Shown in pieces: positions 21,194 to 50,794 of a stretch of DNA of 64,000 bases. The stretch is from an uncultured candidate division Zixibacteria bacterium (GTDB lineage Bacteria > Zixibacteria > MSB-5A5 > GN15 > FEB-12). The translations under genes were made by a program, and so were the position numbers. The stretch is taken from positions 762,459-826,458 of the forward strand of contig OY760907.1 of NCBI GenBank assembly GCA_963664195.1, read 5' to 3'. Every line of letters begins with the position of its first letter. The first letter of the stretch is position 1. Under the pieces are notes generated by a model that did not search any database, was not told where the DNA came from, and saw only the letters and a list, made by a program, of their open reading frames with translations.

Positions 21194-21221
21194 GTAGGTC
21201 GAAACTCCTGCAGTTTCGACA
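21194..21221 (+). repeat. REP-like hairpin, family 1
   Basis: gtaggtcgaaactcctgcagtttcgaca. A perfect 9-bp stem between the lipoprotein gene 3' end and the murQ start. Confidence 0.85.
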
Positions 21222-37509: not shown

Positions 37510-40011
37510 CTACTCTTCCTGCCATTGCAGGACCAATCCCTCGTATCTATCGATCAGCGTCTGAGTATCCTCTTTGGAATGGGACTCCGCAAGGATATTG
37601 AAGGAGGCTCTGAGCCTGTCGGGGACAACATACACCCAGCCGCCGTCTTCCTTAATGCGGACACCGTCGACCATCTGTCGTTCCCTGTTTGCGGATTCAG
37701 TTATCAGGTGTCTCATCACCGTTCCTTTCCTGGCCCAGGGGCAGGGGACAGAGGTGGTCTGCCTGATATAGTGCTCGTATTTCTTGCGGAAATCTGCGAC
37801 ATCACGACCGTCTCGGGCGAGCATCTCAAAAATCCTGACCGCTGCAACAATACCGTCGGCTCCTGTCTGGAACCCGGGGAATATGAACCCGCCTCTCGTT
37901 CCCCCTACAAACGAAACACCGCCATCGCGACGGATGTCCATCATCGCCTGATGGTCGCCTCCGACCCGGACAACCTCAACGCCGTGCTCGGCAGCTATCT
38001 CTTCAACGCCCATCGAAGCGCCGATAGGCACTGCGATCCGCGCCGGACGGTGCCCTTTGAGGAATAACTCGGTAACCATCAACAGCAATGTCTGTTCATC
38101 AAGCGGCACTCCCTGACGATCGACCAGAGTTAGTTTCTCGGTAGCTGCGTTGATTCGGATACCGAGGTCGGCATTCAGCGAGCGAACGATAGTCGATAAC
38201 TGCACGATAGCCTGCGCACGTTCTTCATGAGTCACGGAGCATTTGTGCGCCGAGGGATTCGCATTCAATTCCGTCACCGAAATTCCGAGCTTGGTGAACA
38301 GCATCGGGTAGACCTGGGAAGAGGAACCAAAGGCGTAGTCAACGACGGCCTTGAAACCGGCTTTTCTAATGAGGTCCACATCGACCGAGGCTAAAAACTC
38401 GTCCTGATAATCCTCCAGTACCCGCTGCGGATAATCCAGATGACCAATGTCATCAATGGAGGCCCGTTCATAATCCTCGCCAAAATAGTTTCTCTCAAGC
38501 TTTTTGAGTTTGGCCGTCGGCATGTCAAGTCCTGAGCCGTGGAAGAAAATGAAATCGAGTTGACGGTAGTCCTCGGGGTTATGTCGCACGTATATGCCGG
38601 CGTCGTACCGTCCTTTGGAAAGCGCGTATCTGACCACCGGGACAGGCATGGTCTCAAGGTCAGAGACATGAACGCCAGCCGCAAGGAGTCCGGAGATGAG
38701 AGAACGCCGCAGAAGACGAGTGACATCGGAGGCATCGCGGCTGGTGACCACTGCCGACCCGGCACCCAGTGCCGCGCCGAAAGCTGCCCCCAGACGCACG
38801 CCCATTTCAGGTGTGATCTCTGTCATCGCAAGTCCGGATATCTTGGAGTCGGTGCAGAGCTCGCGGTTCCATTTCTCGCCCCAGACCAGCGAGGCAGATA
38901 CGATTGCCCCGTCGTCGACCGTCTTGCTCGGCCATATTTTGCAGTTGGCTTTAACAGTGGCAAAGTTACCGATTGTGCAGTCATCAGAAACAATAGCGTT
39001 ATCCAGCAACTGAACATCGTTACCCAGTCGTGCCCCGGCGCAAACAATCGCGCTTGAGAAACGACAGCCGTTGCCAACGGTAGTGTCCGCCCAGAGTACG
39101 GTATCACGGAGATCGCACTCCCTGCCGATTCGTGAGCGGGCGCCAATTGAACAATTGTGAAGATGGGTGCCGTCGTCAATACGGACGTCGTCACCGAGAA
39201 TCACAGTACCGGTAAACTCGACACCTTCGCCGACTTGTAGATTGTTTCCCTGATGAACGGTCCCTTCTCCTATGTTGGCCTTCCTCACCTTCAGATCAAG
39301 ATGAAGCTGTTCTTCGAAGATGTGTCGGTGGACACGGTAATACTCGTCGACATTGCCGACGTCCTTCCAGTAGCCATCCATAATCTTGCCGCAGAGCTTC
39401 ATCCCTTTTGCCAGCATCAACGGATACAAGTCTTGGGAGAAGTCAAAATTGGTGTGCTCGGGAATCAACCGGGCCGCTTCCGGCTCCAGAATATAGATTC
39501 CGGTGTTGATCGTATCGGAAAACGCCTCACCCCAGGTCGGTTTTTCGAGGAAGCGTACGATACGCCCGGTTTCGTCGGTGATCACGATGCCGTAGGCAAT
39601 CGGATTCTCGATGCGCGTGAGCAGAATGGTGGCATCCGCCTCTTTCGATTTGTGCCACTCGATAGCTTCTTTGAGATCAAAATCAGTTATGACATCACCG
39701 GAGATAATCAGCACAGGTTCATCCGGTTCACCCATAGCGTAGCGGACAGCGCCGGCGGTACCGTAATCATCGTCAGGCTGGGCGTAGGCCATGGAGATTC
39801 CGAATTTCGCCCCGTCAAGGAAGTAGCTGCGGATGATCTCCGGCTGGAAATACAATAGCGACGTGACATCCGTAAGCCCACTCCCGGCCAACAGCCCGAC
39901 CACATGTTCCATCATGGGGATATTTCCGATGGGAACCATCGGTTTGGGAGTGTTGATTGTCAGGGGGCGAAGCCTGGTACCAAAGCCGCCGGCCATCACG
40001 ATCGCTTTCAC
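37510..40011 (-). CDS. sugar-phosphate nucleotidyltransferase (NTP_transferase + LbH) fused to a degenerate phosphohexomutase-like domain
   Basis: 833 aa. The N-terminus has MAGGFGTRLRPLTINTPKPMVP, followed by hexapeptide repeats. The C-terminal ~440 aa align to PGM/PMM but carry YVRHNP (not TASHNP), NAATEK (not DGDGDR) and GGTRGG (not GGExSG). Confidence 0.8.
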   Translation of the reverse strand: MKAIVMAGGFGTRLRPLTINTPKPMVPIGNIPMMEHVVGLLAGSGLTDVTSLLYFQPEIIRSYFLDGAKFGISMAYAQPDDDYGTAGAVRYAMGEPDEPVLIISGDVITDFDLKEAIEWHKSKEADATILLTRIENPIAYGIVITDETGRIVRFLEKPTWGEAFSDTINTGIYILEPEAARLIPEHTNFDFSQDLYPLMLAKGMKLCGKIMDGYWKDVGNVDEYYRVHRHIFEEQLHLDLKVRKANIGEGTVHQGNNLQVGEGVEFTGTVILGDDVRIDDGTHLHNCSIGARSRIGRECDLRDTVLWADTTVGNGCRFSSAIVCAGARLGNDVQLLDNAIVSDDCTIGNFATVKANCKIWPSKTVDDGAIVSASLVWGEKWNRELCTDSKISGLAMTEITPEMGVRLGAAFGAALGAGSAVVTSRDASDVTRLLRRSLISGLLAAGVHVSDLETMPVPVVRYALSKGRYDAGIYVRHNPEDYRQLDFIFFHGSGLDMPTAKLKKLERNYFGEDYERASIDDIGHLDYPQRVLEDYQDEFLASVDVDLIRKAGFKAVVDYAFGSSSQVYPMLFTKLGISVTELNANPSAHKCSVTHEERAQAIVQLSTIVRSLNADLGIRINAATEKLTLVDRQGVPLDEQTLLLMVTELFLKGHRPARIAVPIGASMGVEEIAAEHGVEVVRVGGDHQAMMDIRRDGGVSFVGGTRGGFIFPGFQTGADGIVAAVRIFEMLARDGRDVADFRKKYEHYIRQTTSVPCPWARKGTVMRHLITESANRERQMVDGVRIKEDGGWVYVVPDRLRASFNILAESHSKEDTQTLIDRYEGLVLQWQEE

Positions 40012-40038
40012 AGCTCAATTCCTTTGAATATGTTATGT

Positions 40039-40707
40039 TCACACGGTCAGGAAACCTGCCGCACTCAGTCGACTCGCTATATCACTAAATGTCTCATACG
40101 AGTTGTAGGGAATGTCATTGTCCCGACAATACACTTCGAGGTCTTTCTTGGCAAACACGAGATCCGCCTCCCTGGCGGCACAGGCGTCGGAGTAGCCGTC
40201 GCCGACAAACACCATGATCGTACCTTCGGTGAACACCTTGCGATATTCGCGAATTCGTTCTCCCTTGCAACTGCCGCAGCTTTTGCAGTCATGGTTGGTA
40301 TAGGGAAACTCGATACGAAGACCGTCATTCTCCAGATATCCCTTGTTGCAGACTACTTTTATGAATCCCAACCCGCTGCGTCCGAGGATTTGATGGATAT
40401 ACAGATCCAGACCCTCGGATACTATTGTCAGCGGTACGCCCGCTCCTCGACACCGCCATTCAAACTCTAAGAACGTCTCATCTATGGTGAACTGTTCCAA
40501 AAATTCGAGAATCTCAACCGACGAGGCGTGCACCATTTCAGCTTCTTTGACCAGCACCTCCCGGCTTGAGAGTATGCCGGCCTTCCAATCGGGAAGCAGC
40601 TCATCGTTACGACCACCTGAGAAATGGTGAAACATATTGTAGCCCACATCGTGGGCGGCGACTGTTCCGTCAAAGTCGCAGAAGACGGCTATTTTGTTGG
40701 TACTCAT
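40039..40707 (-). CDS. HAD-superfamily phosphatase, MtnX/PSPase-like subfamily
   Basis: The ATG at 40707 gives MSTNKIAVFCDFDGT (DxDxT motif I). 'CKSCGSCKG' and 'VGDGYSDACAAREADLVFAK' parallel B. subtilis MtnX as I recall it. Confidence 0.75.
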   Translation of the reverse strand: MSTNKIAVFCDFDGTVAAHDVGYNMFHHFSGGRNDELLPDWKAGILSSREVLVKEAEMVHASSVEILEFLEQFTIDETFLEFEWRCRGAGVPLTIVSEGLDLYIHQILGRSGLGFIKVVCNKGYLENDGLRIEFPYTNHDCKSCGSCKGERIREYRKVFTEGTIMVFVGDGYSDACAAREADLVFAKKDLEVYCRDNDIPYNSYETFSDIASRLSAAGFLTV

Positions 40708-40879
40708 CAAACAGATTTCGTCATTTAGTTGTTTCGGATCACACAGGAGCAATATACGCGTTGCCTGCCCCAGAGCATCGTAAAAACCGGGCTGTTGTCA
40801 TCAAAAATCGGAAACAACTGTCGTTTTCCGGGGATGTCGCAGTTGTATTAGTCGATTCCTGACACTCTGATAGCACTAT

Positions 40880-42466
40880 CTAAAAACCACTGGCACGGTC
40901 CGCTTTGAGAACCTCAGCGGCAAACCTTATGTCCGGTCTGTACGGGACAATTGCTCGTTGATACGCAGCTCTTCCGCCCCCCTGATGTTCCCAGGCAATT
41001 TCCTCGAGCCGCATCTTGATATAATCCCCGTAGTGAATGAACTCATTGATATCATCCTCGTGCGCCAACTCGCTGATATCTTCGCAGACAGCGCGTGTCT
41101 CAGATTCGTTTTCACTTAAACGGGCTATCTCAAGTAGAAACACGGCCGCCTCGGTCACGGGAGACACATACTGGAATTGTTCGGACCAGGCATACTCGCG
41201 AAATCGCGCTACCCACAGGTCATCAAGTTCATCTTCTCCGGAAGCCTCGACAATCTCTTCGCTGTGAAAGTTTCCGAATTGGTTCAGCAAACGAGAGTAC
41301 TCAAGAGTCAGCGGAAAAGCCTCGTGATCGACAAACTTCAGCACATAGTCCGGCACCAGACCGTGGCCGACATCCTCAAGCACGGAATCGAATTCGTTGA
41401 GATAGATGCCCCCCTCGAGATAATACCTCGATACGGTCAAACGAAGCGCACCACCATCGACTAACCGCGTGAATCCCTGTACCAAACCTTTGCCGAAAGT
41501 AGTATCCCCAACCAGCACCGCCCGGTTAAGCTGCTGAAGAGAACCGGCGACAATCTCAGCGGACGAGGCCGACCCGCCGTCAACAATCACGGCCATGGGC
41601 AACCCGCCAGTGATGTCAGAGCCGGTCGAGTAATGCTCCTCCTCGTTCCACACCGACCTGCCCCTGGTCCCGACAATGAACTGGCCGCCGTCGAGGAACA
41701 AATTGGCGGTTCGGTATGCCTCCTGGAACAGCCCGCCCGGGTTTTCACGGAGATCGAGCACCACCCCCTGCGGCGTGATTTCCTCCGAAGATATGAGCGA
41801 GTCAAGGGCAGCCTCGAGGTCGTCGGAGGCACCGGCATCGAAATCAAGCATACGCACATAGATCATGCTGTCCGCAGTGAATCCGGCATAGGGAACATGG
41901 ACGAGATTGATCCGGCGTCTTGTGATATCTACGTCCAGCGTATCACCGCTGCTGGGACGGAATACAAGTGCGTTGAGTTTGGTCCCCTCCATCCCCCGTA
42001 TGTATGCCGTTGCGTCCGCTGCCGAAAGTCCCTTGAGATCGGTTGAGTCGGCCCGAATTATGATGTCCCCCGTGAGCATCCCAGCTTCATCTGCCGGACC
42101 ATCTTCACGCACTGAAATCACCAGCAGACCACGGCCGTTTTCCACAACAGTCACGCCGATTCCGGTGTACCGGCCCGTCATTTCCTCGTTAATACGGCCG
42201 AACTGCTCCGCGTTGTGATAAGTGGAAAATCTGTCCAGCCGGTCGAAAATGGCGTCAATGCCGCTATCAAGCAGTCGGTCCCAGTCAACGTCGTCTCTGT
42301 AGACGCGATCAATGCCGATTGCCACCCGGGTGAGGCGAAACGTCTCGTGCAAGTCATCATCCGCCAGCACATAAACCGCCACACCACCTGATATGAGCAC
42401 AATCAGAAACATGAAAATCACAGAAAGGAGAATGTAGCGCCGCTCAGGGATTTGAGAAGACATCAC
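40880..42466 (-). CDS. S41 family C-terminal processing peptidase (PDZ-containing)
   Basis: 528 aa. N-terminal TM, PDZ 'GPADEAGMLTGDIII', the catalytic region 'VIVDGGSASSAEIVAGSLQ' and '..TFGKGLVQ'. Confidence 0.85.
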   Translation of the reverse strand: MMSSQIPERRYILLSVIFMFLIVLISGGVAVYVLADDDLHETFRLTRVAIGIDRVYRDDVDWDRLLDSGIDAIFDRLDRFSTYHNAEQFGRINEEMTGRYTGIGVTVVENGRGLLVISVREDGPADEAGMLTGDIIIRADSTDLKGLSAADATAYIRGMEGTKLNALVFRPSSGDTLDVDITRRRINLVHVPYAGFTADSMIYVRMLDFDAGASDDLEAALDSLISSEEITPQGVVLDLRENPGGLFQEAYRTANLFLDGGQFIVGTRGRSVWNEEEHYSTGSDITGGLPMAVIVDGGSASSAEIVAGSLQQLNRAVLVGDTTFGKGLVQGFTRLVDGGALRLTVSRYYLEGGIYLNEFDSVLEDVGHGLVPDYVLKFVDHEAFPLTLEYSRLLNQFGNFHSEEIVEASGEDELDDLWVARFREYAWSEQFQYVSPVTEAAVFLLEIARLSENESETRAVCEDISELAHEDDINEFIHYGDYIKMRLEEIAWEHQGGGRAAYQRAIVPYRPDIRFAAEVLKADRASGF

Positions 42467-43107
42467 TTCGCTCCCATCCTCTGAGCCAGCAGCCTCTTGA
42501 CATCGGCGAATATCTCATCGACAGACCCCAGGGCGTCGATCACTCTCACCCGGTCGCTCTCTTCGGCGGCGATTTGCAGAAAACCTCTACGGACCCGCTC
42601 GAAAAACGCACGCGATTGCGACTCCAGACGGTCAGGCTCATTACCACGACGCGAAAATGCCGTATCCAGATCAACATCGAAAACCATTGTCAAGTCTGGC
42701 GTGATCTCCCCCACCGCAACCTTATGCAACTGCTTGATCATGGCGATATCGAGTTGCCGTCCGTACCCCTGATATGCGGTGGTGCTATCGTAGAACCGGT
42801 CGCACAGGACGATCTGTCCGGCTTCAAGCAAGGGCCGAATCTCGCGCTCAGTGATTTCGCTGCGAGCGGCCTCGTAGAGAAGAAGCTCAGTGGTATCTGT
42901 GAGCGAGGAATCATTGCTCAGTAGAATATCACGAATCTTCTCAGACACCGGCGTCGATCCCGGTTCGCGGAGTTTAGTAACAGTGTACCCCAGCGAAATC
43001 AGATGGTCATGCGCCCTGTCCAACTGCGTAGTCTTGCCGCAACCGTCGATACCCTCGAAGGTCACGAAGAGGCCGCGTTTATTTTGCGAGTTCTGTGTCA
43101 TTACCAT
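42463..43107 (-). CDS. tmk: thymidylate kinase
   Basis: P-loop 'FVTFEGIDGCGKTTQ' and 'DRFYDSTTAYQG'. The start is taken at ATG 43107 (alternative 43101), because the longer ORF start lies inside a REP hairpin. It overlaps the peptidase gene by 4 nt. Confidence 0.9.
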   Translation of the reverse strand: MVMTQNSQNKRGLFVTFEGIDGCGKTTQLDRAHDHLISLGYTVTKLREPGSTPVSEKIRDILLSNDSSLTDTTELLLYEAARSEITEREIRPLLEAGQIVLCDRFYDSTTAYQGYGRQLDIAMIKQLHKVAVGEITPDLTMVFDVDLDTAFSRRGNEPDRLESQSRAFFERVRRGFLQIAAEESDRVRVIDALGSVDEIFADVKRLLAQRMGAK

Positions 43108-43110
43108 AGA

Positions 43111-43156
43111 GTCGAAACCGCAGGACAACGATGTTACGTGGGTTTCGACCTACTAC
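43111..43156 (-). repeat. REP-like hairpin, family 1 variant (GTCGAAACC ... GGTTTCGACCTACTAC)
   Basis: A 9-bp stem with a 21-nt loop. The CTAC tail gives it the opposite orientation to copies 4361, 21194 and 29207. Confidence 0.8.
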
Positions 43157-43174
43157 TGTCTCATTTCCGTTGAT

Positions 43175-43204
43175 GTCGAAACCGCAGGGGTTTCGACCTA
43201 CTAC
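43175..43204 (-). repeat. REP-like hairpin, family 1 variant
   Basis: gtcgaaaccgcaggggtttcgacctactac. A 9-bp stem with a 5-nt loop. Confidence 0.8.
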
Positions 43205-43213
43205 TTACGGATG

Positions 43214-43231
43214 TTGTAGGGCGGGTCCGTC
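43214..43231 (-). repeat. family 2 tail, inverted (TTGTAGGGCGGGTCCGTC)
   Basis: Exact reverse complement of 886-903. Confidence 0.8.
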
Positions 43232-43249
43232 CGCGAGCCCACCGGGGAT

Positions 43250-43268
43250 GTCGAAACTACAGGACAAC
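43250..43268. repeat. family 1 half-element (GTCGAAACTACAGGACAAC)
   Basis: It matches the left half of the 43111 copy (gtcgaaaccgcaggacaac) with 2 changes. No right arm is seen. Confidence 0.6.
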
Positions 43269-43360
43269 ATGGTTGCGCCGAGCTCGACCTGCTCTACCGC
43301 CAGGTGCCGTCATTTGTCCCTGCGAGAGGGCACTCCATACGTTGACAAATATCCGTATGC

Positions 43361-43396
43361 TCAATAAGAAAACCGGCGATGCATCATCGCCGGTTT
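43361..43396 (-). terminator. putative intrinsic terminator of ino1
   Basis: A 12-bp perfect stem AAACCGGCGATG/CATCGCCGGTTT with a 3-nt loop, followed on the minus strand by CTTATTG. It lies 31 nt after the stop. Confidence 0.65.
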
Positions 43397-43426
43397 ATAC
43401 TAGTCAATAAGTCTGTCAGGGCAAAC

Positions 43427-44686
43427 TTATTTTTTCGCCTTCACCACTCTCTTGGCAGTCTTCTTCGGAGCTGCCTTCTTGGGCGTTACCTTTTTCGGCG
43501 CTGCCTTCTTGGGCGTTACCTTTTTAGGCGCTGCCTTCTTGGTCGCCGGTTTCTTAGCAGCAGGTTTACGAGCAGCTCTCTTGACCTTGCTGGTTCCCAC
43601 TGCGGTGGTCTTCCAACCGTATTTGGCGATGAACTCCTCGGTCATACGGCGGGCTTCCGGATCGGTGTACTGGACCGGCGGGGACTTCTTGAAGTACGAC
43701 GACGGCTCGATCAACGCACCAGAGAGATGATTGTCAAGAGCCAGCTTGCAACAACGCACGGCATCGATCACAACACCCGCAGAGTTCGGGCTGTCCCAGA
43801 CTTCAAGCTTCAGTTCCAGATTCAGCGGCACATTGCCAAAGGTCGTGCCTTCCATACGAATATACGCCCACTTGCGGTCATCGAGCCACTCGACATAGTC
43901 GGAGGGTCCGATGTGAATGTTCTTCGGATCAATGTCGAAATCGAGCTGTGAAGTCACAGAGTTGGTCTTGGATATCTTCTTTGATTCCAGGCGGGAGCGC
44001 TCGAGCATGTTCAGGAAGTCGGTGTTACCGCCGACGTTCAACTGGCTGGTGCGCTCAAGTTTGACACCGCGCTCAAGGAACAGGCGAGTAAGGACACGAT
44101 GCGAGATCGTGGCGCCGACCTGAGACTTGATATCATCGCCGATAACCGGCAGACCTTTTTCTTTGAATCGCTTCTGCCAGTATGCTTCGCGGGCGATAAA
44201 GACCGGAATGCAGTTCACGAGGCCGCAGCCCGCATCGAGAATCTGCTCAACATACCACTTCGTGGCCTCTTCGGAACCAACCGGAAGATAGTTCACCACG
44301 ACATCAGTCTTGGTGTCCTTGAGCAGCTTCACGATATCAACCGTGTCGCCCGGAGCCTTCTCGATGACCTGTGAAAGATAGTAGCCGAGACCGTCGTGGG
44401 TCATACCGCGCTGAACCGTAACGCCGGATTTCGGGACCTTGCAGAACTTGTACGTATTGTTCGGCTTCGTGTAGATGGCTTCGGAGAGATCCTTGCCGAC
44501 TTTGTTCTTGTCGATGTCGATGGCAGCGGAGAACTCGATGTCACGGATGTGGTATCCGCCGAGGTTGACGTGCATCAGGCCCGGGACCTTATCTTCGTCT
44601 TTGGCCTTCTTGTAGAACTCGACTCCCTGTACCAACGAGGAGGCACAGTTGCCGACGCCGATAATGGCGACTCTCACTTTACTCAT
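43427..44686 (-). CDS. ino1: myo-inositol-1-phosphate synthase with Lys/Ala/Pro-rich C-terminal tail
   Basis: 419 aa. '[22 protein letters not shown]', '[11 protein letters not shown]' and '[14 protein letters not shown]' are typical of the bacterial/archaeal Ino1 family. The last 54 aa are [53 protein letters not shown]. Confidence 0.9.
43471..43542 (-). repeat. 30-bp tandem repeat (2.4 copies) inside the ino1 3' end
   Basis: ctgccttcttgggcgttacctttttcggcg / ctgccttcttgggcgttacctttttaggcg / ctgccttcttgg. It encodes the [10 protein letters not shown] units on the minus strand. Confidence 0.9.
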
Positions 44687-44871
44687 GGTTTGCTTCCCTT
44701 CTTCTATCCGTATTCCAAATTCGCATTGTCACTGTCATGCCATTTGTTGCAAGCGGCTGAATATATTAGACCTTTACACGCGACGTCAATATATTAGTTG
44801 CGTCTTGTGACAAGTTATATATGATTAGTATATAGATTATGACCATATAGTCATTTCGACTAGAACGAACG

Positions 44872-45528
44872 GTGTCCAGCATGCTTGATGAAAACGTAGT
44901 TGCAGAGTTAGTTCAGCGAAACGTCGTGTCCGATACTTTCCGGCGACTGGCGCCGGAAAAGAAGCTTCTGGTGTACCGCGCAGCCACACAGTTATTCGGC
45001 AGATACGGCTACGACGGCATTGCAGTTGATCGGATCTGTCACGATGCAGGGATTTCCAAAGGTTCGTTTTTTCAGTACTTTGAATCGAAAAGTCACCTGC
45101 TCGAATTCACGATTCTCGTATTTGATGACTACCTCGCCAAATGGGCCGAGGAATTGAAACGTCAGGAAACAGCCGTGCTGGCGCGGGATCGGCTGATGTA
45201 CCTGTACGATTCGCTTGTCGTGAATGCCAAACTACACCCGTCGGAGGAAAAGTTCTTCCTGTTTGTCACCCACGCGCTTGACCACGCGGGTGTGGTACTT
45301 GAGGGGATTGATCTTGAGCGTCACTTCAGGCAATATGTAAACGAAATTGTTGAACGGGCGGTGAGAACCGGCGAGATCAGGGGGGATTTCGAGGTTGACC
45401 TTACCGGCTATCTTGTGTCTATCATTATGGAAGCTCTGTTGCGACGGCAGTTTTCCGGCCGCCGCATGCCTCGTCGCCAGATGCGGGAGTACTTGATTTC
45501 GTTCCTGTTCGACGGCATCAAGGCGTAG
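44872..45528 (+). CDS. TetR/AcrR family transcriptional regulator
   Basis: 218 aa with an N-terminal HTH 'AATQLFGRYGYDGIAVDRICHDAGISKGSFFQYFESK'. The start is GTG 44872 or ATG 44881. Confidence 0.8.
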   Translation: MSSMLDENVVAELVQRNVVSDTFRRLAPEKKLLVYRAATQLFGRYGYDGIAVDRICHDAGISKGSFFQYFESKSHLLEFTILVFDDYLAKWAEELKRQETAVLARDRLMYLYDSLVVNAKLHPSEEKFFLFVTHALDHAGVVLEGIDLERHFRQYVNEIVERAVRTGEIRGDFEVDLTGYLVSIIMEALLRRQFSGRRMPRRQMREYLISFLFDGIKA

Positions 45529-45552
45529 AATATCCTTGTGATGTAAGGCAGG

Positions 45553-45571
45553 GGCAGACTGCCCGTCTGCC
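45553..45571. terminator. hairpin between convergent TetR and OMP genes
   Basis: GGCAGAC-tgccc-GTCTGCC (7 bp) with no U-tract. Confidence 0.3.
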
Positions 45572-45642
45572 GCCCACAACCCGGGAGTCTTCCGCACTAC
45601 CGGGGGTGGCACATGGCAATGTGCCCCTGTCGCAACCTTCGA

Positions 45643-47259
45643 CTAAAAGATGTGATGTGTGAAGGAAAGCGAGAGGCCATACCCATCGCTGTTTTCCTCG
45701 AACATCCGCTCTGCGAGCACTTCACGGTCGGTCTTCCACCAGTCCAGATCGACAACCAACGTTGTCGGGACAGAGAGCCGGTACTCCACTTCTGCGCCAA
45801 AACTCAGGGTCCAGTAGTGCAGATCCGGCGCGGCTCCTTCGTCTGGTGCCGGTTCGGGTTCCTCTCGGTCGCCGTCCTGCCTGTAGTAGTTACCGTAGAA
45901 GCGAACGCTGGTGCGCTCGTCATGGAAGTACTCTGCCGAGGCTGAGAGCCAGCCTCGCCAGAGGTCCTGGTAATCCACCTCAGTGGTAACCTCATGATTC
46001 ATTTCTCTGAGATTCTGGGCACCTACATACCAGTCAAGACGTGCACCTGCTTCCAATTGCCATCGTAGATTAACCGGCTTGGCGTAGCTGACTGCACAGG
46101 TTGCATAGGGTTCTCTATAGACGCGTTTTGTGTACTGAGCGGACAGGAATGTATCGACATACACAACTGTATCAACGTTCCCGGTGCCGTCCATATGACG
46201 GAGTATGTCGCTCCCGATGCTCCTTTGAGTCACACTTCTCTGGCTGCTGGTGTGGACGATTGTCACTCCGACGCCCCCGCTCACCGTAAGCCCGAACTGA
46301 CGACTATCGTTGCCGGGGAAGTAATCCCACACATCCTGAATCAAATACTGTGCGACTGCCTCCGACTCAGCCATCACCCCTTCCTCCCTCAGGAAACCGA
46401 CAATGCTCTCCAACGCCTCCATTCGATGCAAACGCGAATCGACTGCATGTGTCAGCCGGTAGCGATACACAAGGTCGGTCAATTGCATCATTTCGTTTCT
46501 GTCCGGTTCACGGAGGAGAAGGCCGGCATCTCGCAGTTCACCGATCATGTTCATTGCCATCGCCGCGAAACGTCCCTCGTATTTCCTTCCCCAGCCCGCC
46601 GTACATTCCACCTTCAGGTTGTGACCCTTTTGATCACCGTCCGTATCCTCATAGAGTGCTTGACTACGTTCCCGGACTGATCCGTCAAAACGGTTTTCTG
46701 ACGAATACCTCTTGCGGAATCGATCCTCACCAGGCGACTGGCTGTAGTAGTAGGAGTAGTTGAAGTGGATTGCGCCGAAGACGTCCCCTGCGACATACTC
46801 CTTCACCCCTATAGCGGGACTGAACCTCACAATGTATTGGAACCTTTCAACGCTTATACTATCCTCGGTGATGCGTCCAAGCGTGTCTTGTGCAGCCTCA
46901 TGCCGATCTGATTCCTGATTATCGATTCGAGTAGTCACCAGCAACGAGACGTCGAAGTCCCGATCGACAGAGTAGTGATGATACTTCCAATGGGAGAGCA
47001 GTGAAGCATTCTGCTGATCGACGTCCTGCTCTCCATCAAAGAAATCGTATGCGAGCGGATCGCGCTCGTAGCCGGATTCCTTATGGCTTTGACCGGAGAA
47101 ATCCAGGTCGCCTTCCACTCTCCACTCATAATCAGTCAGCTTCTCCGGTAAGTAACTCTCTACTCTGAAACCCGTTGTATCAGTAGCTATAGCTGAGAGT
47201 GAGAGCGCGAAAACAGCAGCAAGCGTAAGTGCAAGACGTTCGATAGCAGTTTGAAGCAT
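45643..47259 (-). CDS. hypothetical large outer-membrane beta-barrel protein
   Basis: 538 aa. Signal ...LSLSAIATD. Alternating strand pattern rich in Y/D/R. The C-terminus ...LSLSFTHHIF ends in an aromatic residue. Confidence 0.6.
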   Translation of the reverse strand: MLQTAIERLALTLAAVFALSLSAIATDTTGFRVESYLPEKLTDYEWRVEGDLDFSGQSHKESGYERDPLAYDFFDGEQDVDQQNASLLSHWKYHHYSVDRDFDVSLLVTTRIDNQESDRHEAAQDTLGRITEDSISVERFQYIVRFSPAIGVKEYVAGDVFGAIHFNYSYYYSQSPGEDRFRKRYSSENRFDGSVRERSQALYEDTDGDQKGHNLKVECTAGWGRKYEGRFAAMAMNMIGELRDAGLLLREPDRNEMMQLTDLVYRYRLTHAVDSRLHRMEALESIVGFLREEGVMAESEAVAQYLIQDVWDYFPGNDSRQFGLTVSGGVGVTIVHTSSQRSVTQRSIGSDILRHMDGTGNVDTVVYVDTFLSAQYTKRVYREPYATCAVSYAKPVNLRWQLEAGARLDWYVGAQNLREMNHEVTTEVDYQDLWRGWLSASAEYFHDERTSVRFYGNYYRQDGDREEPEPAPDEGAAPDLHYWTLSFGAEVEYRLSVPTTLVVDLDWWKTDREVLAERMFEENSDGYGLSLSFTHHIF

Positions 47260-47345
47260 GGCTTCCCCCGGTGTTTGGGCGATTGGTTTAGATGGCCCAT
47301 CCTAATTGGACAATTGCAACCATCTTTATGGTGTGACCAATATAT

Positions 47346-47379
47346 ACAAAAAAGCGGGCATTGGTGCCCGCTTTTTTTG
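47346..47379 (-). terminator. bidirectional-type intrinsic terminator after the nitroreductase gene
   Basis: AAAAAAGCGGGCA-ttgg-TGCCCGCTTTTTTT: an 8-bp GC stem flanked by A- and T-tracts. Confidence 0.8.
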
Positions 47380-47397
47380 AATAGTAGATGATTTTCT

Positions 47398-47952
47398 CTA
47401 GAACGCGAACTTGTCGCGCGAGATAATCTCGTTCAGGTCCTTCCGTACACGCGGCGACTCGTCCTTCTTGCGCGTGTCCGCATCCAGCAGATCGATCGAT
47501 CCCGGATACCCCAGCGAAACCGCACACATGACGTGATACTCGTCGGGGATATCGAGCGCCGTGTGGAGCTTGACCGCATCATAACCGGCCATCGCGTGCC
47601 CCATCAAATTCTCGTCGACCGCCGCCAACAGAAGCGACATGGTTGCCAACCCGCAGTCAAACTGGTAGTACTTGACCGGGTCGTCCTCGCGCGAGTAGTC
47701 ATCGCTCTCTTTGGCACAAACTGCAATCAACACCGGAGCTTTCGCGGCCCATTCGTTGCCAACAGCAAGAGCTTCGACAAACTTCGCATGCTGTCCCTGC
47801 TCCGATACGAACACAAACCGCCACGGCTGCTTGTTGGCGCACGACGGTGACCAGCGAGTCTTCTCAAGTATTCGGTTGAGAACAGCCTCGTCAATCGGCT
47901 TGTCAAGATACGACCGCCTGCTCTCACGCTTGAAAAAGATGGAATCGCTCAC
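47398..47952 (-). CDS. nitroreductase family protein
   Basis: 184 aa. 'RRSYLDKPIDEAVLNRILEKTRWSPSCANKQPWRFV' is the classic nitroreductase N-terminal signature. Confidence 0.8.
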   Translation of the reverse strand: MSDSIFFKRESRRSYLDKPIDEAVLNRILEKTRWSPSCANKQPWRFVFVSEQGQHAKFVEALAVGNEWAAKAPVLIAVCAKESDDYSREDDPVKYYQFDCGLATMSLLLAAVDENLMGHAMAGYDAVKLHTALDIPDEYHVMCAVSLGYPGSIDLLDADTRKKDESPRVRKDLNEIISRDKFAF

Positions 47953-47966
47953 AACGACCTCCCTTT

Positions 47967-48902
47967 CTACTGATTTGCCGCTACCTGCGGCCTGAAACCT
48001 TCCATAGCCAACAGCGTGTTCTGACGCTCTCGCACGACTTGCTCGGTCATCTCAAACTCCGGTCCTACCTGTTCAATCATCACCGAGGACACGCAGGAAG
48101 CAAAACAACCGGACTTTCTCAGATCACCGCCGGTCTTCAGGTACTCAAACGTAAACCCGGCCATATAGGTGTCACCCGCGCCGGTGGAATCGAGCAGTTT
48201 CACCGGATGCGGCGGAATGTCGATGAACTCGTTGCCGTCGTATATCACCGAACCGAGTTCGGCCAGTGTCACGATCACCAGTTTCGGTCCCCAGGACTTG
48301 ATGATCCGGGCAGCCTCGTACGGATCCTTGCGGCAGTCGATGCCGGTAAGCACTTCGCCTTCCAGTTCGTTCGGCTTGACGATATCGAACTGACCGAGAA
48401 TTTCTTCGATCCCGTCCGGCTTCTCGTGGTAGATGCGGCCGTCGTCGTGAGCGCCGCGAAGCAACCCCTGCGGATCGCAGAAAAAGAGGCCGTCGAATTC
48501 CTTGCGGATGTCGCGGATGTTGTCAAATGACACTTCGCGCAAAATTGGGCCGATCAAGACAGCTTTGGAGTCATTGTACCATTGCGGCGGAAGGTCACCG
48601 ATGGCATCGGCGCGACCCAGCAGGTCGAGTGTCCGGTTGCCGAAGTTGTCGTAGTACACCAGCGAAAAGCCGCCGGTTTCTTTCGACGGGGTCACCTCGT
48701 AGTTGACCCGGTATCTGTCCAGATCCGCCACAAACCGATTGTGTTTATCTTCACCGACCGCACCGACCAAACGGACATCCTCGCCGAGTTTTGACAGGGC
48801 CAGGACGGCGTTAGTGGAACATCCGGAAAGCACGCGCCCTTCGGTCTCCACGCGCTGCGTTTTTATATAATCGTAAACAGGATTGCCAATAGCCGTAATC
48901 AC
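47967..48902 (-). CDS. PfkB-family sugar/polyol kinase
   Basis: 311 aa with a GTG start and the C-terminal 'DSTGAGDTYMAGF' PfkB signature. Confidence 0.75.
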   Translation of the reverse strand: MITAIGNPVYDYIKTQRVETEGRVLSGCSTNAVLALSKLGEDVRLVGAVGEDKHNRFVADLDRYRVNYEVTPSKETGGFSLVYYDNFGNRTLDLLGRADAIGDLPPQWYNDSKAVLIGPILREVSFDNIRDIRKEFDGLFFCDPQGLLRGAHDDGRIYHEKPDGIEEILGQFDIVKPNELEGEVLTGIDCRKDPYEAARIIKSWGPKLVIVTLAELGSVIYDGNEFIDIPPHPVKLLDSTGAGDTYMAGFTFEYLKTGGDLRKSGCFASCVSSVMIEQVGPEFEMTEQVVRERQNTLLAMEGFRPQVAANQ

Positions 48903-49036
48903 GTATTCGCCTTTCGTGAGTATTCATTATTGATCGGAAATGTACAATGCACAAAGCGCGAAGTCAACGACGTGGTCATACCGGCCAACAATTCGTATAG
49001 GATTTGAAAAAGGAGGCGAGCCTCGCTGTGGCTGCG

Positions 49037-49660
49037 TTAGACTTCCTGACGGTCGCCGAGCATCTTGTGGGTATAGATAATTCGCTGTATGGCGGTCCAG
49101 AATGAGAAGAAACCGACCACGATCAGCGCGAACTCCAGCCATCCGCCCTGCGGCCAGGTGCCAGTCGGCAGATAATGTTCAACAATAGCGCCGGCCATAA
49201 TAAGGATGAACTTCTCAAGTCGCCCCATGATCCCAACCGCGCAGTTTTCCAGCTTGCCCATCGATTCTGCTGCGGCTCTCGTGTAAGAGGCGATCAACAT
49301 TCCGAACAGCGCAAACAGTCCCCAGCCGGGATGCGCCGCACCGGACAGAGTGATACCAGCTAAGATGAAGAACTCGCCGTAACGATCCGAGACATGATCG
49401 AGAATACCGCCAAACACGGTGCCAATCTTGCCGGCGCGGGCGGTAGAACCGTCAAGCATGTCGGTGAAAGAGGTGAGGAGCATCCAGACAACGCCCCAGA
49501 TCATGAAGCCCTTCCAGAACATGATACCGGAGACGATAGCACAAAGGAACGAAATCGCCGTAATGAAATTGGGCCGAAGACCTAGCTTCAGACAAGCCCT
49601 GCCGAGGAACAAAGAAGATTCCTCGTATATCTGGCGTTTACGTTGGTTTATCCCTGGCAA
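49037..49660 (-). CDS. CDP-alcohol phosphatidyltransferase family protein (AIPS/PIP-synthase-like)
   Basis: 207 aa and multi-TM. The signature D-ML-DG-ST-AR-x8-G-GIL-D-HVS-D is complete. 'ASYTRAAAESMG' resembles the inositol-phosphate transferase branch as I recall it. Confidence 0.8.
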   Translation of the reverse strand: MPGINQRKRQIYEESSLFLGRACLKLGLRPNFITAISFLCAIVSGIMFWKGFMIWGVVWMLLTSFTDMLDGSTARAGKIGTVFGGILDHVSDRYGEFFILAGITLSGAAHPGWGLFALFGMLIASYTRAAAESMGKLENCAVGIMGRLEKFILIMAGAIVEHYLPTGTWPQGGWLEFALIVVGFFSFWTAIQRIIYTHKMLGDRQEV

Positions 49661-49816
49661 CTGTTCTCACTCCTCATCCATAAGTGTGCGGGCAATATAC
49701 GTGCAGGTTCTGGGGGCGTCAATGACCGGCAACAAGAAATTTACATCATTTGCACGAAGTTGGCCGCGCGCGTAAGGTCGATTGACAAGCGGCCCAACAA
49801 TGAGGATATTGGGGCC

Positions 49817-50794
49817 GTGTTTATAGATTATGTTGAAATCGAAGTTGCTGCCGGTAACGGCGGGCACGGGTGCATTGCTTTCCGGCGGGAAAAGTTCATC
49901 CCCAAGGGAGGGCCTGACGGCGGCGATGGTGGTCGCGGCGGCAGTGTCATTGCCGTGGCAGACGCCAACCTGTCGACTCTTCTGGAACACCGGTACCGCA
50001 GGAACTACAAGGCTGACAAGGGTCAACCCGGTGGTGGTGCGCTCAAGACCGGCAAATCCGGCGACGACCTCTATATCAAGGTTCCCGTGGGCACGCTCAT
50101 TAAGGACCGTGAGACCGGACAGGTGATCGCAGACCTCGATAAGCCGTTGGCAGAAGCTACTATAGCTCGGGGCGGCAAGGGCGGTCACGGCAACACGTAT
50201 TACAAATCTGCCACCAACCAGACGCCGCGCAAAGCCCAGGACGGATTCCCCGGCGAACAGAAGAAGCTGTCACTGGAACTGAAACTGCTGGCCGATGTCG
50301 GTTTGGTAGGACTACCAAACGCGGGAAAATCCACCATCTTAGCCTCGTTTTCAGCCGCACGTCCCAAGATCGCCGATTATCCGTTCACGACACTGATCCC
50401 TAATCTTGGCATTGTCCAGTTGCACGACTACAACTCCTGCGTCATGGCAGATATTCCGGGCTTGATTGAGGGAGCATCCCAGGGCAAAGGCCTCGGACAC
50501 CAATTTCTCAAACACATTCAGCGGACAAGACTGCTGGTGTACGTCATTGACGTTAATGAACTGGATATCGTGGAAACCCGACGAGTCTTGGAACAGGAGC
50601 TTGACCAGTTTGACTCATCGCTGCCGAAAAGACCGTCGCTGACCGTCATTACCAAGATTGACACACTGCCGGAAAGCGATCTAAAAGAGATATCAAAGGA
50701 GTTGCCTCCCGATTATATTTACCTTTCGGCGGTGGCCCGCATGGGTGCCGAGGGATTCATCCACAAAATCGAGGCTTCGCTTGACCAATTCTGA
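49817..50794 (+). CDS. obg: GTPase Obg/CgtA
   Basis: The GTG at 49817 gives MFIDYVEIEVAAGNGGHGCIAFRREKF.. (Obg fold). G-domain motifs 'GLPNAGKST' and 'DIPG'. The longer ORF from 49643 adds a non-homologous extension. Confidence 0.9.
   Translation: MFIDYVEIEVAAGNGGHGCIAFRREKFIPKGGPDGGDGGRGGSVIAVADANLSTLLEHRYRRNYKADKGQPGGGALKTGKSGDDLYIKVPVGTLIKDRETGQVIADLDKPLAEATIARGGKGGHGNTYYKSATNQTPRKAQDGFPGEQKKLSLELKLLADVGLVGLPNAGKSTILASFSAARPKIADYPFTTLIPNLGIVQLHDYNSCVMADIPGLIEGASQGKGLGHQFLKHIQRTRLLVYVIDVNELDIVETRRVLEQELDQFDSSLPKRPSLTVITKIDTLPESDLKEISKELPPDYIYLSAVARMGAEGFIHKIEASLDQF

Follow-up and report, generated by a model that had tools for sequence, protein, structure and literature searches.

A clade-wide polycationic C-terminal tail with a conserved ending on the myo-inositol-1-phosphate synthase of Zixibacteria-like bacteria

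We analyzed a 64,000-nucleotide stretch of contig OY760907.1 from an uncultured Zixibacteria bacterium (the window, at its full length), in which a single open reading frame (ORF) of 419 aa (43427..44686, minus strand) encodes a myo-inositol-1-phosphate synthase (MIPS) core (residues 1-355) followed by a 64-residue C-terminal extension. From Y356 onward this extension holds 25 Lys/Arg and no Asp/Glu (net charge +25). Comparison of orthologous sequences makes it close to certain that the tail is real and conserved, as a clade-wide C-terminal extension of Zixibacteria-like MIPS, and its layout, as read from the aligned tails, is fixed: a YGWK junction, a +xAAKKP..KPAxKK patch, a variable Lys/Ala/Pro/Thr spacer and a KRVV[KR]xKK end.

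The core was delimited at 43622..44686 (minus strand) by Pfam PF01658, TIGR03450 and alignment to the M. tuberculosis Ino1 structure (PDB 1GR0, 367 aa). PF01658 (Inos-1-P_synth) matched residues 191-299 at 123.7 bits, above the Pfam gathering score (cutoff 27), and the mycothiol-type Ino1 model TIGR03450 aligned end to end (query 4-353 to model 1-355 of 355) at 542.7 bits, short of the 638 bits set as its equivalog cutoff; by these matches the protein is a MIPS, though not filed as an actinobacterial equivalog. The alignment to 1GR0 covered 352 residues (query 2-353, E = 2e-143) without long gaps and stopped at 1GR0 residue 365, two residues before the end of that chain. Because it ends at query residue 353, so near the 1GR0 chain end, residues ~356-419 are extra. 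The N-terminal GxGxxA Rossmann motif is present, with GVGNCAS invariant in 71 aligned sequences, and no signal peptide was found on the MIPS. The gene product has the core, and is predicted to have the catalysis, of an ordinary NAD-dependent myo-inositol-1-phosphate synthase. It shares with M. tuberculosis Ino1 a collinear core, PF01658, the Rossmann motif and a genomic association with a CDP-alcohol phosphatidyltransferase, and differs from 1GR0 and from most MIPS representatives in its 64 additional C-terminal residues with their charge of +25.

To define the distribution of the tail we assembled 154 orthologues, comprising the 120 best protein clusters and 34 Zixibacteria-like species representatives, and the basic tail is kept in every one (154/154) although the DNA has diverged. 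The 120 clusters (81-100% identity) all encode proteins of 394-432 aa, carry the tail in 120/120 and, where named, belong to Zixibacteria or the FCB group. The species representatives were taken from a scan of one genome per GTDB species, which yielded 80 loci; the MIPS gene was translated in each, and loci were grouped by MIPS identity and shared gene order, the labels of metagenome-assembled genomes (MAGs) being inconsistent. The tail is present in 34/34 Zixibacteria-like representatives (L001-L034; 32-75 aa, net charge +9 to +30), is shorter in 13 Eisenbacteria-like loci (L035-L047; median 33 aa, median net charge +11) and has a median of 11 aa and a median net charge of 0 in 33 loci from Chloroflexota, Thermoleophilia, Actinomycetes, Fermentibacteria and others. 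Across all 154 Zixibacteria-like tails the length is 32-76 aa (median 47) and the net charge +8 to +31 (median +17 to +18). A library of representatives at 50% identity, in which fragments are frequent and many high-GC products seem to be frame-shifted, showed that full-length MIPS mostly stop about 20-25 residues past the YFxKSP motif.

A first-pass annotation, made from the window sequence alone, had described the tail as fused to MIPS and suggested an alignment of orthologues. That alignment was performed: the tail recurs in 154/154 Zixibacteria-like MIPS with a repeat number that varies, and a stop near 43591 or a separate downstream tail ORF was found in 0/154. The tail is a genuine part of the enzyme (single frame, stop, strong terminator, kept in the 154 orthologues), as had been proposed, and it is clade-wide, with a shorter version in Eisenbacteria-like MIPS, rather than a one-off fusion. 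The Eisenbacteria-like tails (L035-L046; ~33 aa, ~+11) have a conserved ending of their own, ..GLKRAARKSA, which resembles the internal KRAARK patch of the window tail. We also observed that MAGs labelled "uncultured Ignavibacteriales" (L006, L008, L010, L012-L014, L022, L025, L027, L030, L032 and others) carry Zixibacteria-type MIPS (79-90% identity) together with the full Zixibacteria gene order, that L021 is labelled Acidoferrum and L037 Dormiibacterota, and that some of L001-L034 are labelled simply "bacterium"; the record labels are probably unreliable.

Along the extension (all coordinates on the minus strand), the junction and linker (residues 356-367, 43586..43621) lie beyond the end of the solved Ino1 chain and open with Y356, G357, W358 and K359, invariant in 71 aligned Zixibacteria-like sequences. 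They are followed by a semi-conserved internal basic patch (residues 368-384, 43535..43585), which an anchored position count places usually ~14-15 residues past Tyr356; its consensus, [KR]-[VAQ]-A-A-[KR]-K-P-x-x-K-K-P-A-[VTA]-K-K, occurs in 111/154 tails, and A371 and A372 are nearly invariant in the 71-sequence alignment. The variable spacer (residues 385-411, 43454..43534), built of AAPKKVTP units and marked by low identity and a 30-bp indel, is the site of length changes, and the C-terminus lies between 20 and 62 residues past the patch, depending on the tail. The tail closes with the conserved motif KRVVKAKK (residues 412-419, 43430..43453), delimited by an end-anchored count and by shuffles.

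The consensus of the last eight residues is K-R-V-V-[KR]-[KT]-K-K. Counted from the C-terminus, position -7 is Arg in 144 of the 154 tails, and Val occupies -6 in 124 of them and -5 in 140. The ending pattern [KR][RK][VLIM][VIAT]x(1-2)[KR]K[KP]? was found in 133/154 of these phylogenetically related tails, compared with a mean of 0.37 and a maximum of 3 in composition-preserving shuffles. Rarer endings, ..KRVTRKTLLKK and ..KKKVAExx, are paired with an internal RKLTLK motif. A generalized form, [KR][KR][VALI][VATI][KR][KRTSA] within the last 12 residues, occurs in 118/154 Zixibacteria-like, 9/13 Eisenbacteria-like and 0/33 other tails. Mean pairwise identity is 69% over the last 8 residues versus ~19% over the preceding 16, which lie in the spacer. 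What is robust in the sequence comparison is this contrast, in one and the same molecule, between a conserved ending and a scrambled spacer. The patch and the ending, neither of which figured in the first-pass annotation, argue for more than a generic polycation.

The basic stretch K367-K419 (53 residues) comprises 21 Lys (40%), 3 Arg, 13 Ala, 7 Pro and no Asp/Glu, which amounts to 77% Lys+Ala+Pro and 45% Lys+Arg. The translation quoted by the first-pass annotation is exact, with 43430-43591 corresponding to residues 366-419 (54 codons); its "roughly half lysine" was slightly high, at 40% Lys or 45% with Arg. No hydrophobic stretch was found anywhere in residues 356-419, and in the pooled Zixibacteria-like tails Val is the sole notable hydrophobic residue besides the junction Tyr/Trp. 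An AlphaFold2 (AF2) model showed no secondary structure past residue 357 (predicted local distance difference test, pLDDT, about 35); the whole model is poor (mean pLDDT 52.6), having been computed from a shallow 71-sequence alignment (82-94% identity), and too poor for docking inferences. Composition and this low-confidence coil suggest that the tail is disordered.

Within the spacer, Tandem Repeats Finder reported a 30-bp unit in 2.8 copies at 43460..43542 (minus strand; score 145, 94% matches, no indels), so the 30-bp repeat seen by the first-pass annotation holds, with a greater extent than the 2.4 copies at 43471-43542 given there. The two full units are one synonymous base apart, and a 15-bp (pentapeptide) sub-period in 5.4 copies underlies them. 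The closest relative, P0002 (92% identical; L081/L082), was recovered twice, as an NCBI MAG and in an independent Logan assembly. Its DNA can be aligned to the window position by position over tail, stop codon and terminator, save for one clean 30-bp in-frame gap that falls in the spacer and removes exactly one decapeptide repeat unit. P0003 (432 aa) carries an independent array of 6.6 copies of a 15-bp unit (KKATP, 95% identity) at the same tail position, and most other tails are without a strong DNA repeat. The predicted variation in copy number is thus borne out, both by the indel in the two assemblies and by the array in P0003. These alignments show that the spacer grows and shrinks by 15- or 30-bp units, duplicated or deleted in tandem; slippage-type length change is real, yet an occasional embellishment rather than the general mode of tail building. 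The window genome appears to hold one extra 30-bp unit through recent duplication, although the exact copy number, 2.8 rather than 1.8 units, could stem from the assembly or vary within the population. An Rfam search of the region gave a single hit, to the mmgR/suhB small RNA, on the strand complementary to the repeat (43466-43532, plus), which at 19.7 bits (E = 0.42) stays under the gathering score of 41; this sub-threshold match was treated as most likely due to chance.

Downstream, the TAA stop codon (43427..43429, minus strand; read from the sequence) has the same position in the closest relative. An intrinsic terminator (43370..43396, minus strand), with a 12-bp perfect inverted repeat, 7 G-C pairs, a 3-nt loop and then a T-rich run, begins 31 nt past the stop and is also conserved in that relative. 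Upstream of MIPS lies a putative promoter-like site (44760..44789, minus strand; TTGACG-18-TATATT), which matches the consensus at only 10/12 positions.

A protein was scored as having a strongly basic terminus if 11 or more K/R and no more than 2 D/E stood in its first or last 30 residues. Of ~452 large non-overlapping ORFs screened, drawn from the window together with the 34 Zixibacteria-like loci (each sampling some 20 kb of MIPS surroundings), only MIPS has such a terminus; a six-frame scan found no other Lys/Ala/Pro-rich stretch of this kind in the 64-kb window, and the ending motif closes MIPS genes only in 1.32 Mb of fetched DNA. A metagenome scan for the ending (L084-L152) returned MIPS in 8/69 hits, the rest being unrelated proteins or short spurious ORFs. 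With 61/69 hits outside MIPS, the ending was rejected as a private signal of the MIPS family. By families assigned by eye from sequence, K[RS]VV[KR]KKK-stop also closes uL5-like (L085, L107), Lon-like (825 aa, L114), topoisomerase-IB-like (L093, L110) and PilT-like (L097) proteins and small K-rich proteins (L136, L145). A search of a 5.8-billion-protein collection with the tail alone gave 77 word-sharing candidates, none at E <= 1e-3, low complexity and database size removing the signal.

The window tail had been called histone-H1-like, a label that proved to be compositional only and confined to its expanded spacer. It scored 14.4 bits against HC2 (PF07382, cutoff 40), 15.6 against the Burkholderia H1-like model NF038053 (cutoff 80) and 10 against NF038052 (cutoff 135), all far below the cutoffs. 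Five orthologous tails without the expansion gave no match to H1-like models, and typical orthologous tails have more Thr and Val and less Pro than the window tail. The histone-like look here reflects a recent repeat expansion over an older, non-repetitive motif architecture. AlgP/PhaF KPAA tails, chlamydial Hc2 and the PAKKA tails of mycobacterial Hlp/Ku share with it Lys/Ala/Pro richness, predicted disorder, penta- or decapeptide repeats and strain-variable copy number (PMC9239181, PMC2848022, PMC3553676). Those tails sit on DNA-binding or granule-organizing proteins, whereas the MIPS tail sits on a biosynthetic enzyme, is shorter, is mostly non-repetitive in orthologues and has a conserved non-repetitive ending. 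The first-pass annotation named no such tail on a metabolic enzyme like MIPS, yet curated models contain comparable basic tails on housekeeping enzymes: residues 361-417 match positions 979-1036 of the 1044-position valyl-tRNA synthetase (ValRS) model NF011492 (PRK14900) at E = 2e-5, and an adenylate kinase model matches very weakly. This similarity is one of low complexity and not evidence of common descent, and the ValRS tail has an obvious ligand in tRNA, whereas MIPS is without a nucleic-acid substrate.

We compared the tail with known C-terminal targeting elements. Sorting signals (PEP-CTERM, LPXTG, GlyGly-CTERM) and an encapsulation peptide were rejected, there being no hydrophobic helix. 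Amphipathic-helix targeting of the MinD/FtsA type was likewise set aside, with no AF2 helix past residue 357 (in a low-confidence model) and 7 prolines in the window tail. TubY, whose flexible lysine-containing C-terminal tail binds membranes and DNA, offers the likeness of such a tail on a tetramer with multivalent electrostatic binding (PMC7762940); its tail is described as amphipathic, whereas the MIPS tail contains Pro, is predicted to form no helix and offers no hydrophobic residues beyond Val/Ala. The property expected of a polybasic electrostatic tether, high positive charge, was found in 154/154 tails (+8 to +31), beside a core that is not acidic and with a spacer at ~19% identity that is basic all the same. 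Literature searches returned nothing relevant on MIPS with a lysine-rich tail or on Zixibacteria with inositol. No description came to light of a MIPS subfamily whose polycationic tail is conserved and closes with a fixed end motif, as delineated here from sequence; polybasic low-complexity tails as such are already known.

The MIPS gene lies in a conserved order of about ten genes (window 37510-50000; L001-L034). Where contigs reach, the Zixibacteria-like order is CDP-alcohol phosphatidyltransferase, PfkB, (nitroreductase), (538-aa unknown), TetR on the opposite strand and MIPS, continuing with thymidylate kinase (Tmk), S41 peptidase, MtnX-like HAD phosphatase and an NTP-transferase/phosphomannomutase fusion. 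The CDP-alcohol phosphatidyltransferase (49037..49660, minus strand; Pfam PF01066) shows the D-x2-DG-x2-AR...G-x3-D-x3-D signature and resembles phosphatidylinositol phosphate (PIP) and archaetidylinositol phosphate (AIP) synthases; its best NCBIfam scores, 130.5 bits for AIP synthase (cutoff 180) and 84.6 for PIP synthase (cutoff 170), are both below cutoff. In Eisenbacteria-like loci, and in many others, the gene directly upstream of MIPS encodes a CDP-alcohol transferase. Synteny and the family matches of the transferase make it likely that MIPS supplies inositol phosphate to a membrane-bound lipid synthase, the transferase being the likely membrane-bound consumer of its product. In Bacteroidetes, the MIPS gene has as its neighbors either PIP synthase and PIP phosphatase or a set of NTP-transferase, CDP-alcohol transferase and HAD genes (PMC9246714). 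The locus described here recalls the "alternative" cluster of that study and may be devoted to inositol lipids or glycolipids.

The other genes in this order are PfkB kinase (47967-48902), the MtnX-like HAD phosphatase (40039-40752), an 833-aa ManC-like nucleotidyltransferase fused to phosphomannomutase (37510-40011) and an S41 C-terminal-processing peptidase (40880-42466) with an N-terminal membrane anchor. S41-family proteases generally recognize non-polar C-termini. A link between this peptidase and the tail was rejected on that ground and because the membrane anchor makes the peptidase probably extracytoplasmic and the MIPS-Tmk-S41 synteny also occurs where the MIPS tail is small or absent. 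The 538-aa ORF between the TetR and nitroreductase genes (45643-47259, minus strand) has no Pfam or NCBIfam match and has counterparts at 23-31% identity in a few Zixibacteria-like loci. The MIPS-Tmk spacer of the window contains an insertion of ~180 bp relative to the closest relative (43105-43285), with three hairpin-forming copies of GTCGAAACC...GGTTTCGAC (RNA fold z-score -2.05) and a seed copy of the element also at 21207-21220 (minus strand); it looks like a small palindromic element of the repetitive extragenic palindromic or miniature inverted-repeat transposable element type.

What the tail does can be approached through its charge. With a median net charge of 0, against -3 in untailed clades, the cores of tailed clades are not the more acidic ones, and folding of the tail back onto an acidic core was rejected. 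Because the core is not acidic, the charge of the tail is left uncompensated and an external polyanion would have to meet it. We propose that the tail tethers the enzyme electrostatically to a cellular polyanion, a general reading for which we consider the case evenly balanced. The tethering to nucleic acid, polyphosphate or anionic membrane that the first-pass annotation suggested is thus plausible. Solved MIPS enzymes are tetramers; four tails per tetramer would bring together roughly +70 to +100 charges as a multivalent tether, in which the conserved end patch would be the contact element on the polyanion and the spacer an adjustable, charged leash. Among possible targets, we rank first, tentatively and by a narrow margin, the inner face of the cytoplasmic membrane, because the conserved locus also encodes the next pathway enzyme, an integral membrane protein that makes an anionic lipid. 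MIPS would then be held at the membrane near the PIP/AIP-synthase-like CDP-alcohol transferase.

Several points weigh against the tether reading and its membrane ranking. As read from its sequence, the tail appears to be without the aromatic, strongly hydrophobic or amphipathic-helix features usual in bacterial membrane targeting. Inositol phosphate is a freely diffusing small molecule. Mycobacterial MIPS, which feeds PIP synthases, is without such a tail (1GR0, 367 aa), and a tether is therefore not required for the pathway. No acidic docking surface was found on the neighboring CDP-alcohol transferases, which are net positive in all groups. The tails are phylogenetically related, so that motif counts are not independent events, and with a neighbor-gene sample of about 20 kb per genome, tailed proteins elsewhere are possible. 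Lys/Ala/Pro repeats are, moreover, classically DNA- or polyphosphate-binding (PMC3553676, PMC9239181).

This last point leads to nucleoid or nucleic-acid binding, in which the tail would bind DNA or RNA non-specifically in the manner of the H1 C-terminal domain, Hc2, Hlp/Ku PAKKA or AlgP/PhaF KPAA tails, with MIPS moonlighting or evenly partitioned at division as proposed for PhaF-tethered granules. We regard it as doubtful. The 77% K+A+P content of the window basic stretch, the weak sub-threshold HC2 and Burkholderia H1-like matches, the repeat-number variation like that of Hc2 (PMC2848022) and the DNA binding of PAKKA and KPAA tails (PMC3553676, PMC9239181) speak for it, as does the K[RS]VV[KR]KKK ending on topoisomerase-IB-like, Lon-like, uL5-like and small K-rich proteins, several of them in nucleic-acid-binding families. 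However, typical orthologous tails are Thr/Val-richer and Pro-poorer and match no H1-like model, every hidden Markov model score is far under its family cutoff, and there is no evident reason why MIPS alone among ~450 neighboring genes should be placed on DNA.

The contrast between the ending (69% identity, 133/154 tails against 0.37 expected) and the rest of the tail, and its persistence across spacers of about 20 to 62 residues, would also fit a short linear motif, in which KRVV[KR]xKK on a flexible leash docks a protein partner (the PIP/AIP-synthase-like enzyme, another MIPS subunit, a protease or a chaperone) or self-regulates, with control of activity, assembly or turnover. A related ending in Eisenbacteria-like MIPS points the same way. 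We judge this unlikely: the analysis pointed to no partner, the CDP-alcohol transferases have a net positive charge and showed no acidic patch, acidity is likewise absent from the MIPS core, unrelated metagenome proteins bear the same ending, and AF2 gave no docking, from a poor model.

Binding to polyphosphate granules, which would concentrate or store MIPS, has a parallel in AlgP (net charge +55, KPAA repeats), which localizes to such granules via its tail (PMC9239181), and in the KKPAAKKPA-type units of the window tail; the resemblance is compositional only, no evidence of polyphosphate metabolism genes was found at the locus, and there is no functional link between inositol phosphate synthesis and polyphosphate, which makes it very unlikely. 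A frameshift, mis-assembly or neutral low-complexity run-on is extremely improbable and, as to the existence of the tail, largely refuted: low-complexity repeats are prone to assembly and slippage errors, but the nearest relative, in two independent assemblies, shares the frame, stop codon and terminator, all 154 orthologues keep the basic tail despite DNA divergence with none having a stop near the core end, and positive charge and ending motif are conserved far beyond composition.

The electrostatic tether can be extended to a more specific proposal, which is rather unlikely in this full form: the tail might be a phylum-wide bipartite localization signal (+xAAKKP patch, KRVV[KR]xKK end and a length-tunable leash) that spatially organizes the first inositol-lipid step. 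The MIPS tetramer would be recruited to the membrane beside the PIP/AIP-synthase-like enzyme, or parked on nucleoid or polyphosphate. If the tail were merely a generic sticky end, the finding would reduce to a minor annotation note. MIPS is normally treated as a plain soluble enzyme, and a bipartite signal, if true, would be the first instance in bacteria of MIPS being placed within the cell in a regulated way, its binding strength tuned by repeat slippage. Inositol-lipid synthesis counts as relatively rare among bacteria, and work on its pathways is still under way (PMC9246714). That an uncultivated lineage keeps a cationic tail and a fixed end motif on MIPS suggests that the site of inositol-phosphate production matters, and the tail may offer a simple handle on Zixibacteria membrane biology and on how polybasic tails choose among membrane, nucleic acid and polyphosphate.

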